Source: Escherichia coli
GTDB lineage: Bacteria > Pseudomonadota > Gammaproteobacteria > Enterobacterales > Enterobacteriaceae
Direction: 5' to 3' (one strand)
Length of the DNA stretch: 64,000 bases
Assembly (NCBI RefSeq): GCF_003334765.1
Contig: NZ_QOWT01000002.1
The notes beneath the pieces are model-generated. The model had not been told where the DNA came from. It did not search any database and worked only from the letters and a program-made list of their open reading frames with translations. The translations under genes and the position numbers were made by a program. Positions 10,195 to 16,293 of this stretch are shown here, piece by piece; the stretch's first letter is position 1, and each line of letters opens with the position of its first letter.

Positions 10195-10533
10195 ATGACC
10201 ATTAAAAATAAGATGTTGCTGGGTGCGCTTTTGCTGGTTACCAGTGCCGCCTGGGCCGCACCAGCCACCGCGGGTTCGACCAATACCTCGGGAATTTCTA
10301 AGTATGAGTTAAGTAGTTTCATTGCTGACTTTAAGCATTTCAAACCAGGGGACACCGTACCAGAAATGTACCGTACCGATGAGTACAACATTAAGCAGTG
10401 GCAGTTGCGTAACCTGCCCGCGCCTGATGCCGGGACGCACTGGACCTATATGGGTGGCGCGTACGTGTTGATCAGCGACACCGACGGTAAAATCATTAAA
10501 GCCTACGACGGTGAGATTTTTTATCATCGCTAA
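10195..10533 (+). CDS. rcnB: Periplasmic Ni/Co homeostasis protein RcnB (YohN)
   Basis: ORF 10015..10533; start moved to internal ATG giving MTIKNKMLLGALLLVTSAAWA (signal peptide), about 112 aa. Confidence 0.82.
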   Translation: MTIKNKMLLGALLLVTSAAWAAPATAGSTNTSGISKYELSSFIADFKHFKPGDTVPEMYRTDEYNIKQWQLRNLPAPDAGTHWTYMGGAYVLISDTDGKIIKAYDGEIFYHR

Positions 10534-10560
10534 AAAAAGCCCCCTCATCATGAGGGGGAA
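10532..10560. terminator. Intrinsic terminator hairpin between convergent rcnB and yehA (T-tract on minus strand)
   Basis: GCCCCCTCA-tca-TGAGGGGG stem flanked by an A7 run on plus strand (U-tract for the minus-strand yeh transcript). Confidence 0.5.
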
Positions 10561-10614
10561 ATGCAGACACCTTGTTATTTTTTATTATTAGCCACTTGCT
10601 CGTCTTGCTTGTTA

Positions 10615-11649
10615 TTAGTCGTATTTCACGTTGATTAATGCGGTTGCCTCCAGTGCGCCAGATTTAACTTTGTTTGTATCGTAGACGTAGTAACTGGCTG
10701 TTATCGGAATTGAAACCGTTGTATCTGTAAGTTTTGACTTCGCCGCAACTTCCTTTAAATTTGTATATCCTTTACTGCTGTTAGTGATATTTAAAAGTGT
10801 GACTGGCGAACCATTACTTTCAAGAATAAATCCTACGCCATTATCTTCCGCACCTTTCAGTATTGTGTTGCTGTTGGTTAACAAGTCAGAACTTGATAAA
10901 TACACCTGCATTTTCCGTGATGTTTGATTTTGTTGACCTAATAAATTTTTACAACGCAGAATAATATCCCCTTGTTTACTATTTATTGTTGCTTTGTTAC
11001 CTGTGGCTGGTAATTGTGAAACGGGAATACTGTCTAAAGTAATTAATAAATCGTCCGGTTTGCAGGTTGTGGTTATCGGGTTGTATGACAATGTCAGATT
11101 AAAGGAATAGACACCTGCATTTTGTGCCAATGCATTTCTGTAGCTATTTACACATGCATCCCATGACTTGCCACCTAATAAACACAGTAGAAATTGTACT
11201 GCGGCACTCCCGCGTGTCGATGATGAAGCACTGGATAATGTCGCAACACCATTAATCATCACTGAACCGCCGCCCCCCGCAGAAACATTCACTTTTGCAT
11301 TACTGGCCGCAGGTGTCACCGTAACTGAATAACCACTGGTGAAACTGGTCTGATTATTTGACAACGTGATGTTGTTTTTATTGGTCCATTCAAAATGTAA
11401 ATTTAATTTTATGGTATCGTTATAAAGTCCAACAATAATATCCGACGGGCTCATAGGGGTGATAGTATTTGTACTTACGCATGACGAATCATTAAAATTA
11501 TGCTCATATGTCGCCATTTGTGTTTGAGTAAGTGCAAAATCCCCCTGAACAACCAAGTTGTGCTGAACAGATAACTCACTATAACATGCCGCATAGCTCA
11601 CAGGCATAACCATCATCATTAATATAAATAGCATTATGCGAATTTCCAT
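10615..11649 (-). CDS. yehA: Fimbrial adhesin-like tip subunit of chaperone-usher fimbriae
   Basis: 344-aa ORF with signal peptide; last gene of the minus-strand yehDCBA operon; Ser/Thr/Asn-rich beta-strand protein. Confidence 0.8.
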   Translation of the reverse strand: MEIRIMLFILMMMVMPVSYAACYSELSVQHNLVVQGDFALTQTQMATYEHNFNDSSCVSTNTITPMSPSDIIVGLYNDTIKLNLHFEWTNKNNITLSNNQTSFTSGYSVTVTPAASNAKVNVSAGGGGSVMINGVATLSSASSSTRGSAAVQFLLCLLGGKSWDACVNSYRNALAQNAGVYSFNLTLSYNPITTTCKPDDLLITLDSIPVSQLPATGNKATINSKQGDIILRCKNLLGQQNQTSRKMQVYLSSSDLLTNSNTILKGAEDNGVGFILESNGSPVTLLNITNSSKGYTNLKEVAAKSKLTDTTVSIPITASYYVYDTNKVKSGALEATALINVKYD

Positions 11650-11664
11650 AGAACCACCTGACTA

Positions 11665-14145
11665 TTACTGGCAAATATAATTTCTACTTTCATCAATCTC
11701 TTTACCGAAGGTGATTGTGCATGAAAGTCCTTGTTGCTTATCAATTGCCACATTAACCGATGGCGGTACTTCATTGGTGCGAATAAATAACTGACTTCCC
11801 TGGCCGACAACGCCAATATTATGACCATGGATATCATTGACTTCATAACCAAACGTTAATGATTGCCCATCTGCTCTTAACGCTTTTATAAACCATGGCT
11901 TGCGCTGATCGGTATCAAAATTAACCAGTACAACCGCGCCGCGATAAGGGGCGGCAATTTTCCGGTTGCCACGTAATTCTGCTTCGCTATCGCTTTGCGA
12001 CACATCCAGCATCAGGTGATTTTCCCGATAAGGTGTCATTCCGTCGTATATCACCACTCCATTACGGTTTGTTGTGCGATATTTTTGCCCATTGACATAA
12101 GCATCTTTAATTCCTGGCGCATTCATCACAGCAAACGTTTCGGAAAGACGGTTCGCCAGATTAACGCCACCCGACCAGGCGACAATGCCCCCTGAAACAC
12201 TGGCTCCAGCCTGTCGATAAGTACTCGACTGACTATAACTGCCATTCACTGTCGCAACCGGCGCGTTCCAGGTCAAATTCGCCCCAGCTGTCGTTTCATT
12301 TCCCTGATGTTGATGACTCAGGTTGACACCATAATTGAACTGATCCCGACTCCCTACTGTTCCTGATAATCCCGTATTATTTGAGGCAAACCCCTGATCA
12401 TCAAACGTCGTTGAGTTAGACATATATATTTGCCGACGAGGCGTCGAAACGTCATCACCCCAATCAAAGGGAATCGATATAAAAATATTAAAACGTTTCT
12501 CTTCATGATGATTCTCGTCATAAGCCTGGCTTGCCGCGAGGGTATAGCTTATCCGTCGCAGGTTGTTGGAATAACTCAACTGATAATCCTTACTACTGCC
12601 GCTACGCCCCCAGTAATCTCGCCATAACGTACTTAATGACACAGACCCCCAACCTTCTGGCAATGACTGGCTCATATTGGCGGAAAAGCTATTTTTGCGG
12701 CCAAAATCGTTCTGGTAATAATCGGCAATGTCATAGACATCGTTTTCATCACGGCGATAATTATCTTTGTTGTTTGCCCAAACGTGATCGTTAAATGTCC
12801 GGTAATCACGCGACGAATAACGCCAGGCCGCCAGACCAAAACGCGTCGACGTTTGGCTCACAAATTTGTTGTAGGCAATTTGATAACTTTGCCCGTCAAA
12901 CACATCGCCGTTGTCTTGTTTACTATGCGACTTAGTGGCATCGACGGAAATGGCACCAATGCGTGTATTCCAGCCAGCCCCCAAAGTAAACGCGTAATAA
13001 TTATTCGCGACCATCGAGCCACCATACAGCGTCAATAAATTATTAAAACCATACTGATAACCCGCCTGGACAAAATCACTTTGTTTGCTCGCCCCTTCAA
13101 TATGGCTACGACCCGCCGCTAAATCATATTTCGACACGCCGGGTTGCAGCATATTTGGCACCGCTGCATAAGGCACCAGATAGGTGGTTACCGAGCCGTC
13201 CGCCTCTTTCACGCTGACATCAAGATCTGCTCCACCACCGGCCAACTGCAAATCTGTAATCGCGAACGGGCCAGGAGGAACCTCTTTCTGATAAACGACA
13301 AAACCATTCTGTTCAATAGTTACCAGCGCGTTACTCTGAGCAATCCCCTGCACCCGTGGCGTAAAATTTTGTTTCGAGTTAGGCAACATCTGCATATCAC
13401 GAAACAACCGCACACCTCTGAAGCGAACAGAATCAAAAATATCGCTTGATGTGTACATATCACCCACGCGAAGCGTGCCGAGAAGTTGGGCAAATCCACG
13501 TTCCAGATACAGGGTATTGCTTTTCCACACCCCTGGATTGTTATTTGTTTTACTGAAACTGGCATCAGAATGCAGTTGCCACCCCAGTAAATTTAACCCG
13601 CTGTTAAAACGTACATATGTACTCTTGTTATTACCCGACGCTTTATAGTCGCTGTAATACTGACTCAGATAATAAGAGGTATAAAACGCATTAATACCCC
13701 GCTCCCAGTTTTCCGGTGGAACATAGCCACTTTCCAGTTCTTCCACCCAGGCCTGCGGGACACTGAAATCGAGACGAAAAACCCCGATATCCCAGGTATA
13801 GCTCCCACCCTGAACAAGTTGCTCAAATGTTAAACATTGCTTACCGCTGGCGAAGTTATCGCTATTAATGCCTAACCGCTTGATAACTTCTCTTGATAAA
13901 CATGTTTCTTGCGGGTTGTCTTTAACAATAATCTCATATTTCCCGCGCCATTGCTTATTGACATAAATATCGATGTCATACTGCCCCGGTAAGGGTTGAT
14001 TATCATCAAGACGAATATTTGCAACCTGCTGGTCTTTCATTCCACCTATCATAAAATGGGTATCAAAGGTTTCTTCAGCTGCATAAGCTTCAATGCCGAG
14101 CAATAACGCTACGATTGCTGATGCAAGTGGGGTCATTCTCAACAT
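11665..14145 (-). CDS. yehB: Outer-membrane fimbrial usher
   Basis: ORF 11665..14160 (about 826 aa from second Met MLRMTPLASA...); size and composition typical of FimD/PapC-type ushers. Confidence 0.85.
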   Translation of the reverse strand: MLRMTPLASAIVALLLGIEAYAAEETFDTHFMIGGMKDQQVANIRLDDNQPLPGQYDIDIYVNKQWRGKYEIIVKDNPQETCLSREVIKRLGINSDNFASGKQCLTFEQLVQGGSYTWDIGVFRLDFSVPQAWVEELESGYVPPENWERGINAFYTSYYLSQYYSDYKASGNNKSTYVRFNSGLNLLGWQLHSDASFSKTNNNPGVWKSNTLYLERGFAQLLGTLRVGDMYTSSDIFDSVRFRGVRLFRDMQMLPNSKQNFTPRVQGIAQSNALVTIEQNGFVVYQKEVPPGPFAITDLQLAGGGADLDVSVKEADGSVTTYLVPYAAVPNMLQPGVSKYDLAAGRSHIEGASKQSDFVQAGYQYGFNNLLTLYGGSMVANNYYAFTLGAGWNTRIGAISVDATKSHSKQDNGDVFDGQSYQIAYNKFVSQTSTRFGLAAWRYSSRDYRTFNDHVWANNKDNYRRDENDVYDIADYYQNDFGRKNSFSANMSQSLPEGWGSVSLSTLWRDYWGRSGSSKDYQLSYSNNLRRISYTLAASQAYDENHHEEKRFNIFISIPFDWGDDVSTPRRQIYMSNSTTFDDQGFASNNTGLSGTVGSRDQFNYGVNLSHQHQGNETTAGANLTWNAPVATVNGSYSQSSTYRQAGASVSGGIVAWSGGVNLANRLSETFAVMNAPGIKDAYVNGQKYRTTNRNGVVIYDGMTPYRENHLMLDVSQSDSEAELRGNRKIAAPYRGAVVLVNFDTDQRKPWFIKALRADGQSLTFGYEVNDIHGHNIGVVGQGSQLFIRTNEVPPSVNVAIDKQQGLSCTITFGKEIDESRNYICQ

Positions 14146-14160
14146 AGGCAGCTCCTGCAA

Positions 14161-14880
14161 TTAAATTTTGTCACTAATATAGTTGCCATGGTCATCGATA
14201 ATGGTCAGATGCCAGTTATTTGCATTATTACTTTTGACATTAACACTCTGACTTTCTAAGGGGGCAATCATAATAGTTTCATAATTGACTTTGACATTAT
14301 TAGCTTTGACATCCGAAATCGTCACCCAATTAGCTGAGTCATTTTTTATCACCAAACCATTGCCACTGCGATTTACCAGCAATTTTTTAAATGTCGCTTT
14401 ATTTACCGGAGCAATACCCGCTGGCCGGTAAAACAACTTAATTCTGTTTTGCATCGCAAACTTCAGTGCATTCTTACCTTCTTGCTCTGGACTATTTGGT
14501 GGAATATCCAGAACATTCAGATAAAAAATGCTTTCTTTATTAGTGGGCAGTTTATTCGGCATAATTTTGATTTTTACTTGCTGCCCGGAATTTGCCCCTA
14601 TTTTTGCCACTGGTGGCGTTAACATGAAAGGAACCTGAATTTTTTCTGGTGGTAATGACGTATCGCCATCATCAATCCACGCCTGCAGCAGCGAAGAACG
14701 GTTTCCCTGGTTCATCAACTGCACCATCACTTCTTTATTTTCTGCCGGGTAAATAATGCGCGTCCCGTAGATAACAATTCCGGCATGTGCAGGAAGGACC
14801 ATAGAAAAAATGAGTAAAGATAATAATCCTTTCATTTTAATGCCTCTTAAATTAAAAGGCCGCCATGGGATAGCGGCCAT
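14161..14880 (-). CDS. yehC: Periplasmic fimbrial chaperone (PapD/FimC-like)
   Basis: 239-aa ORF; signal peptide after internal Met (MKGLLSLLIFSMVLPAHA); true start may be the internal Met. Confidence 0.82.
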   Translation of the reverse strand: MAAIPWRPFNLRGIKMKGLLSLLIFSMVLPAHAGIVIYGTRIIYPAENKEVMVQLMNQGNRSSLLQAWIDDGDTSLPPEKIQVPFMLTPPVAKIGANSGQQVKIKIMPNKLPTNKESIFYLNVLDIPPNSPEQEGKNALKFAMQNRIKLFYRPAGIAPVNKATFKKLLVNRSGNGLVIKNDSANWVTISDVKANNVKVNYETIMIAPLESQSVNVKSNNANNWHLTIIDDHGNYISDKI

Positions 14881-14914
14881 GTTTATTACCTGGAGAAACT
14901 TACAATTTTATTTA

Positions 14915-15457
14915 TTAATCCTGCGCCACACGCATAACCAGAGAAGATAACACATCACCTGATTGCACTGAGTTATCTGTCAGTTTCAGGTATTTTGCTT
15001 TAAACGGAATAGCATATTGACCTTCCGCTGTTTTATAACTCTCAATGTTAAAAGGTGCAGAAACATCCAGGACATCGCTGTTATCACCTAAATAGAGATA
15101 GTAACCCACGGTATCGTTGCTACTGGCTATCGCCTTATCGTTACCGGTTATTTTATCGTTGGTAATCAACGAGAGTTTTACACCAGCAACTTCTTTCGGG
15201 CAGCTAATTTTTAACATGCTGCTGGTTACACCGACTGCATCATCATAGGTAGAATATTTAGCTTTACCTTCAAAGACACTGGTTGGTACAGTCGGCATAT
15301 TAATACTTACTGAATCACCACCCGCTTCGAATTTACACGGAGATTGTGCAATATTCCCCTTAATAGTTAATGTTCCGGTATCAACGTCTGCAGCAAATAC
15401 TCCAGCGCTCATAAAAAAAGAAGAAAAGACAGCGACAGCAATAATTGAACGTTTCAT
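14915..15457 (-). CDS. yehD: Major fimbrial subunit (pilin)
   Basis: 180-aa ORF with signal peptide MKRSIIAVAVFSSFFMSAGVFA; first gene of the operon, AT-rich upstream region. Confidence 0.85.
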   Translation of the reverse strand: MKRSIIAVAVFSSFFMSAGVFAADVDTGTLTIKGNIAQSPCKFEAGGDSVSINMPTVPTSVFEGKAKYSTYDDAVGVTSSMLKISCPKEVAGVKLSLITNDKITGNDKAIASSNDTVGYYLYLGDNSDVLDVSAPFNIESYKTAEGQYAIPFKAKYLKLTDNSVQSGDVLSSLVMRVAQD

Positions 15458-15680
15458 AATATGTTCCTTAATAAAATTTATTTTTGGTTGTTAAGAGTCT
15501 GTATCTCTTGGAAACAAATTTCTCACATCAAAAAAGTTGCCGCAATGTAAACACATTGTTTTATTGATTTAAAACAAATTAACCATTGCAATATAAATAC
15601 AACAAATATTTAAGAGTATTAACTATTTATCGCATCTATCAATTAATGTAGATTTATGTAAATGGTATTGTTGATATCAA

Positions 15681-15720
15681 TAAAAAAGCCGAAATCATTT
15701 ATATAAATGATTTCGGCTTT
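15681..15720 (-). terminator. Intrinsic terminator downstream of yehE
   Basis: Hairpin GCCGAAATCATTT-atat-AAATGATTTCGGC followed by a U-tract on the minus strand. Confidence 0.55.
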
Positions 15721-15749
15721 CTAAATGCAATTAAAATCAGGTTGCCAAA

Positions 15750-16031
15750 TTAATCGTAGCGATTTAACACGATTCGACGTTTGCTATCGCTACCTGCAAC
15801 AACCACTTCTGTCGTTACACCTTTGACGGGCGAAGAAAACAGATGACGGGTGTCAACATTATACGTTAACTGACCACAATGCTGTTGAGGTTGACCATTA
15901 ACCATAGCCATACTGCATGTTGGGGGACTGATCCTGCCATTAATCGCTAATGTGGCAGTCTCTGAAGAGAATGCGGGAGAAGCCAATCCATAGGCAAGAA
16001 AAATAATTCCTGACAGCCAATACTTATTCAT
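15750..16031 (-). CDS. yehE: Small secreted protein of unknown function (DUF2574-like)
   Basis: 93-aa ORF with signal peptide MNKYWLSGIIFLAYGLASPAFS. Confidence 0.75.
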   Translation of the reverse strand: MNKYWLSGIIFLAYGLASPAFSSETATLAINGRISPPTCSMAMVNGQPQQHCGQLTYNVDTRHLFSSPVKGVTTEVVVAGSDSKRRIVLNRYD

Positions 16032-16293
16032 TGAACGTTATCCCTGTAGTAAAGGTTATGCCTGGATAGAATGAGTGCATAACAAACTATAGCTGTACAT
16101 CCACTACACAGCCACGAAGGATGATAATGAAGCATTGCCTGTATGATCAATCGACTTTGTAGAGTTTCGGACGAAGGTCCGCAGAATATTCGCAGTATTA
16201 AATAAGTGTTCATTAATGCGGCAAAAACTAATACACCGCATCAATGTAACATCTCTGCGGTGTATGAAGAATAACCAGAATGGTTAATAGGCG

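Follow-up and report, generated by a model that had tools for sequence, protein, structure and literature searches.

Anatomy of the AT-rich spacer upstream of the yehDCBA pilus operon of Escherichia coli and its conserved regulatory block

Introduction

A chaperone-usher fimbrial operon, yehDCBA, lies on the minus strand of a 64,000-nucleotide stretch of Escherichia coli DNA (NCBI RefSeq assembly GCF_003334765.1, contig NZ_QOWT01000002.1; hereafter the window), and it raises the question of what its markedly AT-rich upstream region, which separates yehD from the neighbouring gene yehE, actually contains, and whether the operon is of foreign origin. A preliminary description of this DNA had read the region as typical of cryptic fimbrial operons silenced by H-NS and had taken the base composition as a sign of horizontal acquisition. 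The literature already describes yehDCBA as an AT-rich, H-NS-bound and cryptic operon, crystal structures and a ligand (pectin) are available for the adhesin, and recognizing the locus matters little by itself. What we add is modest and comparative. The spacer is dissected, and a published ArcA operator emerges as the most conserved element of the low-GC island across genera and paralogues; in addition, we describe a conserved intercistronic hairpin, a probable mis-annotation of the yehC start in K-12 and the consistent linkage of the uncharacterised gene yehE.

Results

The spacer has a three-part structure with a conserved block next to yehD

The spacer between yehE and yehD spans 15458-15749 (292 bp), position 15750 being the final base of the yehE stop codon. 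Its GC content of 24.7% is the minimum of all 292-bp windows in the 64 kb, where 0.06% of such windows are as low, and the windows at or below 30% GC all fall in a single cluster (15330-15846). With 15 A/T-only runs of at least 6 bases, the region bears out the preliminary description of about 290 bp of AT-rich DNA with A/T tracts. Far from being uniform AT filler, it begins on the yehE side with the terminator of that gene, continues with a variable stretch and ends in a regulatory block that is deeply conserved (Table 1).

A scan with YehC, restricted to one genome per species, provided 30 loci for comparison. Between genera the regulatory block has a nucleotide identity of 68-77%, compared with 55-60% for the yehD coding sequence and 58-65% for that of yehE; a 40-bp core within the block (15542-15581), with a column identity of about 92-93% among 25 sequences, is the most conserved part of the spacer. 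Since RNAalifold returned -1.9 kcal/mol and no global RNA structure for the block, the conservation appears to be exerted at the level of DNA or sequence. The core also stands upstream of paralogous operons that have no yehE, namely in second Escherichia loci, in Klebsiella spallanzanii and in an uncultured enterobacterium. An Rfam search of the spacer gave sub-threshold noise on the terminator hairpin and no match to the conserved block. A 21-codon open reading frame (ORF) in the spacer of the window was considered as a leader peptide and rejected, as its ATG is not conserved in other genera.

The 43-nt site for phosphorylated ArcA (ArcA-P) that Park et al. 2013 list for yehD in their supplement is matched exactly at 15534-15576. 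Because the 40-bp core sits almost wholly inside this site, the published operator explains the strong conservation of the core. In the same study yehDCBA was derepressed 5.4-fold in an arcA mutant, and an independent study using systematic evolution of ligands by exponential enrichment likewise lists YehD as an ArcA target. We also considered TTGTTTTAAATCAA as a CRP/FNR-like site, which by eye fits 9/10 of the FNR consensus, and discarded this reading because the published ArcA site explains the same bases.

Alongside the operator we predict an extended -10 promoter for yehD, with transcription starting near 15508-15510. The predicted elements overlap columns that are invariant or nearly so in our inter-genus alignment (A1), these being T118-G122, T138, G139, G141-A143, T145 and T146. 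A short hairpin would form at the 5' end of the resulting mRNA; 86% of cells are paired, changes on both sides occur at three of the five pairs, and 8 of 500 shuffles were as good. A further compensatory variant, GAGAG/CUCUC, is found in the paralogue locus L023, and the covariation evidence for this candidate hairpin is altogether modest. Downstream of it, the GGA of the yehD Shine-Dalgarno sequence is a probable CsrA contact. In enterohaemorrhagic E. coli (EHEC), where the yeh locus is a single transcript, gel shifts have shown CsrA to bind the yehD 5' untranslated region in a GG-dependent manner (PMC11287998).

At the opposite end of the spacer, the 70 bp adjoining yehE contain the intrinsic terminator of that gene, itself about 40 bp long. 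The 83-nt segment 15670-15752 has a minimum free energy of -24.5 kcal/mol (z = -6.2), and none of 200 shuffles folded as well. The hairpin is kept in nearly all other genera examined, with a lower stem that covaries between genera and an upper stem, AUCAUU...AAUGAU, that is conserved. The upper stem and loop edge, AUCAUU..(A/G)UGAAUGAU, is nearly invariant (15685-15720; loci L003-L032), which exceeds the need of a terminator alone. With an ATAT loop the terminator is a perfect 40-nt palindrome. BLAST (megablast) reported two places per genome for the spacer; a second genomic copy was considered and rejected, as only the yehE terminator region is hit twice, likely through the palindrome matching its own reverse strand. 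Strains with a non-palindromic terminator loop gave one place.

Table 1. Features of the yeh locus, in coordinates of the window
Feature	Position	Strand	Description
Operon 3' hairpin	10540-10558		GC-rich, flanking T-run, between convergent rcnB (plus) and yehA (minus)
yehA	10615-11649	minus	Two-domain tip adhesin, 344 aa; N-terminal receptor-binding domain and C-terminal pilin domain
yehB	11665-14145	minus	Outer-membrane usher, 826 aa from annotated ATG 14145
yehC	14161-14835	minus	Periplasmic chaperone, 224 aa from ATG 14835; K-12 annotation start 14880 (239 aa)
yehD-yehC stem-loop	14858-14878	minus	GC-rich stem, then U-run (terminator scan)
yehD	14915-15457	minus	Major pilin, 180 aa, 99% identical to K-12 YehD
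Conserved non-coding regulatory block	15458-15649	minus	About 190 bp nearest yehD; Escherichia, Salmonella, Citrobacter, Superficieibacter
yehD Shine-Dalgarno	15464-15469	minus	AAGGAA, invariant across genera (alignment A1)
Predicted 5' hairpin	15493-15509	minus	5 bp, AAGAG...CUCUU, at predicted 5' end of yehD mRNA
Predicted yehD promoter	15517-15545	minus	-35 TTGCGG 15545-15540, 17-bp spacer, TG 15525-15524, -10 GAAATT 15522-15517
ArcA-P operator	15534-15576	plus	Four 11-bp-spaced direct repeats; overlaps predicted -35
Variable stretch	15650-15680 and beyond		About 60-80 bp, AT-rich, differs even among E. coli lineages
yehE intrinsic terminator	15683-15722	minus	16-18 bp stem, 4-nt loop, then U6
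yehE	15750-16031	minus	93-aa secreted DUF2574 protein, directly upstream of operon, in low-GC island

Silencing and other layers of control

The reading of yehDCBA as an H-NS-silenced cryptic operon agrees with published H-NS chromatin immunoprecipitation (ChIP), cryptic status and H-NS repression (PMC5797941, PMC3661553). The operon was H-NS-bound in two ChIP studies (Kahramanoglou 2011 and Oshima 2006, as tabulated in PMC5797941 and PMC3661553), is described as cryptic and H-NS-repressed, and is overlapped by a predicted genomic island (PMC5797941); for the H-NS repression and for the function of Yeh in K-12, that paper cites Korea et al. 2010. The spacer between yehD and yehE is one of 78 H-NS-bound 'promoter islands' (PMC3661553), and the operon lies within a region of extended protein occupancy in which transcription is silenced (bioRxiv 2024.06.20.599902). 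Over-production of the H-NS antagonist SlyA induced yehDCBA 3.6-fold (PMC5797941). The preliminary description had named a GC content equal to that of the neighbours and constitutive expression as the outcomes that would speak against it; neither was found.

We propose that several controls are layered on this region. H-NS would coat the AT-rich island and silence it, and SlyA could counteract this effect. ArcA-P, bound to the four direct repeats at 15534-15576 that overlap the predicted -35 element, would repress transcription under anaerobic conditions, while CsrA would bind the transcript at the Shine-Dalgarno sequence with its GGA. The ratio of pilin to assembly machinery is probably set by the conserved stem-loop that follows yehD. 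We expect these controls together to account for the normally low expression of yeh.

A number of observations weigh against parts of this scheme. Park et al. 2013 found the ArcA ChIP-seq peak at yehD in one of two replicates, and their yehD entry is marked 'no TSS' (transcription start site). A generic sigma-70 scan missed the predicted promoter and gave only a weaker, non-conserved candidate at 15642-15615. The high-affinity H-NS motif TCGATAAATT, with up to two mismatches allowed, is not clearly enriched, being matched 77 times in the window against 66 expected, and the 11 matches in the operon and spacer are only a mild excess. The published CsrA binding and pilus electron microscopy were obtained with the O157 allele, whose identity is only about 85%. 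Finally, yeh expression from the native promoter has been detected in EHEC and at low temperature (PMC7098969, PMC11287998), so that whether yeh is 'cryptic' varies with the strain and the condition. Concrete targets for asking when this widespread gut pilus turns on are the predicted promoter hexamers with their start near 15509, yehE and the two hairpins.

Gene identities and pilus assembly

We are confident that the locus is the chromosomal Yeh (yehDCBA) chaperone-usher pilus operon of E. coli, a member of the gamma-4 clade by usher phylogeny (PMC7098969, PMC12778044) and the orthologue of Salmonella Stc. The identities of the genes follow from the 100% DNA identity of a 6.5-kb stretch to several annotated E. 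coli chromosomes, taken together with family models, Pfam and the crystal structure of the adhesin domain. The ORF list holds yehA, yehB, yehC and yehD as four consecutive intact frames on the minus strand, so the complete pilin-chaperone-usher-adhesin set described earlier is present exactly where it had been placed. Across the operon and spacer (5.1 kb) the DNA is 99.9% identical to K-12 BW25113; the Yeh proteins are 99-100% identical to those of MG1655, with YehD differing by one or two substitutions. Gene order matches b2108-b2111 of K-12, the RefSeq names on identical DNA are yehA, yehB, yehC and yehD, and the RefSeq annotation places rcnB on one side and yehE, apbC (mrp) and metG on the other, as at the Yeh locus. 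Genes, order and locus are the same as in the Yeh operons of K-12 (b2111-b2108) and of uropathogenic E. coli (UPEC) UTI89, and nothing of substance is different. Naming is reversed in UTI89 (yehABCD); the K-12 adhesin YehA is the UPEC 'YehD' and the K-12 pilin YehD is the UPEC 'YehA'.

The individual proteins were assigned from family models and structures. YehA scores 689 bits against NCBIfam NF011788 (cut-off 395), its residues 184-344 are a Pfam Fimbrial (pilin) domain, and residues 21-193 align without mismatch to PDB 9n4g_A, labelled 'YehD protein', with 9n4h and 9n4i as close variants; these entries are structures of the receptor-binding domain of the adhesin, published in 2026 (PMC12778044). 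YehB matches the NCBIfam usher model NF011763 over its full length (residues 1-826; 1752 bits, cut-off 933), and its ORF extends to 14160, giving 831 aa from a TTG. YehC matches about 20 fimbrial chaperone models, of which Salmonella StcB (E = 9e-103) and PRK15218 (E = 1.6e-95) are the highest, both under their equivalog or exception cut-offs (PRK15218, 319 bits against 372). Membership of the PapD-like chaperone family is certain; the exact equivalog is not called. YehD carries an N-terminal signal sequence, visible in its translation, and the Pfam Fimbrial domain PF00419 (residues 32-169, E = 4.6e-7), and its top NCBIfam match, 'fimbrial protein YehD', scores 110 bits, under the cut-off of 136. 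The NCBIfam equivalog models for YehC and YehD thus fall below cut-off on sequences close to K-12, and seem to have been built from a different allele class. YehE, YehD and YehA each have a full-length or nearly full-length match to PHROG families of no known function (phrog_36959, phrog_37086 and phrog_31820). We gave these no weight; they probably reflect chromosomal DNA swept into prophage calls and not a phage link.

A pilin, a chaperone, an usher and a two-domain adhesin are the minimal set for a tipped pilus (PMC12778044). By the general scheme of chaperone-usher systems, the pilin YehD and the tip adhesin YehA would be exported to the periplasm, where YehC would cap the subunits by donor-strand complementation, and the YehB usher would polymerise them into a thin flexible fibre, with the N-terminal domain of YehA available to bind pectin. 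Published observations fit this scheme. Yeh fibres expressed from the O157 allele under Ptet were thin and flexible by electron microscopy and raised adhesion to HeLa cells (PMC7098969); pectin is a ligand of the adhesin, and when type 1 pili are absent the pilus contributes to colonisation of the gut (PMC12778044). Yeh has its chaperone-usher assembly logic, two-domain tip adhesin and a contribution of H-NS in common with type 1 (fim) and P (pap) pili. Unlike those systems, it consists of a minimal four genes with no adaptor or terminator subunits, and it has neither a fimS invertible switch and recombinases nor a GATC/Lrp switch.

The yehC start and the hairpins at the operon joints

The true start of yehC is probably ATG 14835, which would make the N-terminus in the K-12 annotation 15 codons too long. 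This conclusion draws on the AAGAGG Shine-Dalgarno sequence 7 nt upstream of ATG 14835, on the signal peptide MKGLLSLLIFSMVLPAHA that follows it, on the NCBIfam chaperone models, which align from residue 16 of the 239-aa form, and on the use of the short form by the Prokaryotic Genome Annotation Pipeline. With the start at 14835, the hairpin at 14858-14878 becomes intercistronic, having been covered by the yehC extension in K-12. A GC-rich hairpin with differing stem sequences occupies this position in 31 of 31 sequences (the window and the 30 loci of other species). By analogy with other pilus operons, it is probably a partial terminator or attenuator, or alternatively a 3' stabiliser, that would raise pilin relative to the assembly proteins. 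At the other end of the operon, the terminator scan found CCCCCTCATGATGAGGGGG followed by CTTTTTTT on the minus strand at 10540-10558, and this hairpin is likely the 3' terminator of the operon.

Base composition and the origin of the locus

The operon has a GC content of 42.5% against a window mean of 50.7%, and the lowest-GC stretch of operon size in the window lies here. GC at third codon positions (GC3) is 0.33-0.44 in the yeh genes, compared with 0.56-0.62 in rcnA, apbC and metG, so both profiles uphold the view that the coding region is more AT-rich than its neighbours. The low-GC island is larger than had been described, running from about 10534 to 16293 (41.5% GC) and taking in yehE and the yehE-apbC spacer. 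GATC sites are scarce as well. In the operon and spacer (10615-15749) there are 5 against 14 expected from local dinucleotides (P about 0.005, post hoc), while the remainder of the window is enriched (245 against 199). Nowhere in the window is there a longer run without GATC than the 2706 bp that span the 5' end of yehB, yehC, yehD, the spacer and part of yehE; GATC-depleted stretches were noted at 13228-15929 and 10471-11906. Low GC recurs in every genus compared, with 0.42-0.47 for the operon, 0.24-0.32 for the spacer and 0.33-0.44 for the adhesin slot, against 0.53-0.56 for the flanks.

Horizontal origin, as proposed in the preliminary description, is consistent with GC, GC3 and GATC depletion, and four published predictors of foreign DNA, namely IslandViewer, GIST, Nakamura et al. 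and Lawrence & Ochman, flag the yehD/yehE spacer (PMC3661553). A recent acquisition is not supported. The order metG-apbC-yehE-yehD-yehC-yehB-(adhesin)-rcnB-thiM is shared by Escherichia spp., Salmonella enterica arizonae and diarizonae and many Citrobacter. In E. coli, 96% of complete genomes (5210 of 5426) retain the operon over at least 80% of its length. No integrase, tRNA or insertion sequence (IS) element is annotated at the operon borders, towards rcnB or apbC; the patchy distribution, mobility genes and tRNA or IS border of a recently acquired island are all lacking. Since the same locus is occupied in three genera and in nearly all complete E. coli genomes, any acquisition is ancient and predates the split of Escherichia, Salmonella and Citrobacter. 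Wurpel et al. likewise describe Yeh as core-associated, intact in 92% of strains, equal to Salmonella Stc, found at the same Citrobacter locus and ancestral (PMC3559732).

Within this fixed position the genes have diverged very unevenly. Protein identity between genera is 95-96% for the flanks, 63-83% for the usher, 55-75% for the chaperone and 41-52% for YehE; that of the pilin is 30-39%, but 61-64% in loci L009 and L030, and most adhesins could not be aligned. At this one locus, both Salmonella and Citrobacter harbour two usher classes, of about 82% and about 66% identity. Lateral exchange has demonstrably affected the adhesin most of all, and also the pilin and the usher class, but not the locus itself. 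The yehA allele of the window is found over at least 80% of its length in only 4606 complete E. coli genomes. In some 600 of roughly 5,200 operon-bearing complete genomes, yehA is truncated or of a different allele, the remainder of the operon being roughly 97% identical (H41-H44, H56). The O157:H7 operon is about 85% identical with an unmatched adhesin, and in other Escherichia species the YehA match is confined to the C-terminal pilin domain, at 45-47% identity. With its fixed locus, persistent low GC and exchanged pilin and adhesin alleles, Yeh is a clean example of an 'ancient xenogeneic-looking' locus.

Salmonella Stc (stcABCD) and the Yeh-type operons of Citrobacter occupy the same metG-apbC-yehE-[operon]-rcnB-thiM locus with four genes plus yehE, and have low GC, the conserved upstream block and the two hairpins in common with Yeh, their proteins having diverged from it unevenly and the adhesin most; the literature equates Yeh with Stc (PMC3559732, PMC12778044). 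A related gamma-4 operon encodes the Yhl (Yeh-like) pili of phylogroup E E. coli (PMC12778044). The second-copy loci L023 and L025, which we take to be Yhl itself, share the Yeh regulatory core upstream of the pilin gene and differ in their chromosomal location, in having no yehE upstream and in a chaperone identity of about 55%.

Alternative explanations

The low GC content may not be a foreign mark at all. The operon could be an ancient resident in which AT-richness is kept by local mutation bias or by selection, either for an H-NS/ArcA regulatory architecture or through the codon and amino-acid usage of surface proteins. The shared locus with low GC throughout Escherichia, Salmonella and Citrobacter, the near-universal presence in complete E. 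coli genomes, borders devoid of annotated integrase, tRNA or IS, and the common-ancestor inference of Wurpel et al. (PMC3559732) would all be expected of such a resident. It fits less well with the calls of the four predictors (PMC3661553) and with the atypical GC3 and GATC content; coexisting usher classes and the replacement of the adhesin within E. coli indicate ongoing lateral exchange of cassettes, and Superficieibacter has the same five-gene unit at another locus. We therefore consider continuous residence a serious possibility, though not the probable one, and retain an ancient acquisition followed by cassette exchange.

The word 'cryptic' might also be taken to mean dead, the operon being a decaying, non-functional relic. 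Expression of yeh in laboratory K-12 is very low, and IS1 interrupts yehD or yehA in several strains (H18, H21, H46), including the laboratory strain NEB Turbo. However, the window and most genomes have the four ORFs intact, the regulatory block and hairpins are conserved across genera, and the published pili, adhesion, pectin binding and in vivo colonisation phenotype largely refute this view, which we regard as highly improbable. Even less credit attaches to the spacer as a phase-variation switch, whether a fim-like invertible element or a pap-like Dam/Lrp GATC switch. Such switches are common among fimbrial operons, and a 10-bp perfect inverted repeat does flank yehE (15578-15587 and 16279-16288). 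A pap-type switch is nevertheless impossible because there is no GATC anywhere between 13228 and 15929, and for a fim-type switch no recombinase gene is annotated nearby, other genera do not keep the spacer arm of the repeat, and AT-rich DNA would yield a repeat of 10 bp roughly by chance. With no GATC and no credible invertible element, both forms were rejected.

yehE and a possible portable control module

YehE is a DUF2574 protein by Pfam (E = 1.8e-52). Wherever the contig of a syntenic locus (Escherichia, Salmonella and Citrobacter) extends far enough, yehE is found next to apbC and directly upstream of yehD. Superficieibacter has yehE ahead of yehD at another locus; the paralogous loci L023, L025 and L026 have no yehE. 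One published Yeh expression construct begins at the yehE ATG (PMC7098969). We tentatively suggest that the Yeh/Stc/Yhl family has a portable control module of about 190 bp (the ArcA operator, the extended -10 promoter, the 5' hairpin and the CsrA-type Shine-Dalgarno region) and that, in the Yeh/Stc branch, YehE is a functional fifth component. We put this joint proposal forward as conceivable rather than probable. If it were true, the module would be better conserved than the pilin, adhesin and yehE genes of the family and about as well as the usher, and would move with the operon between loci and genera; YehE might then be more than an unrelated neighbour, for instance a mini-pilin-like factor in the periplasm.

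The N-terminus (DTATLTIxGR..PTC) and C-terminus (IVLNRYD) of YehE look pilin-like, but there is no significant similarity. A pilin fragment was considered and rejected, as BLASTP of YehE against YehD gave E = 3.6 and against YehA no match; Pfam DUF2574 weakly touches YehD residues 1-44 (E = 0.0026). The AlphaFold model of YehE has a predicted local distance difference test score of 64, too poor for a fold search, and a literature search for 'yehE/DUF2574' returned only irrelevant word-start matches. Beyond yehE, a 17-bp inverted repeat at 16231-16265, just 3' of the apbC stop codon, is probably the apbC terminator, which would leave yehE with an upstream region of its own of about 200 bp (16032-16230, about 40% GC).

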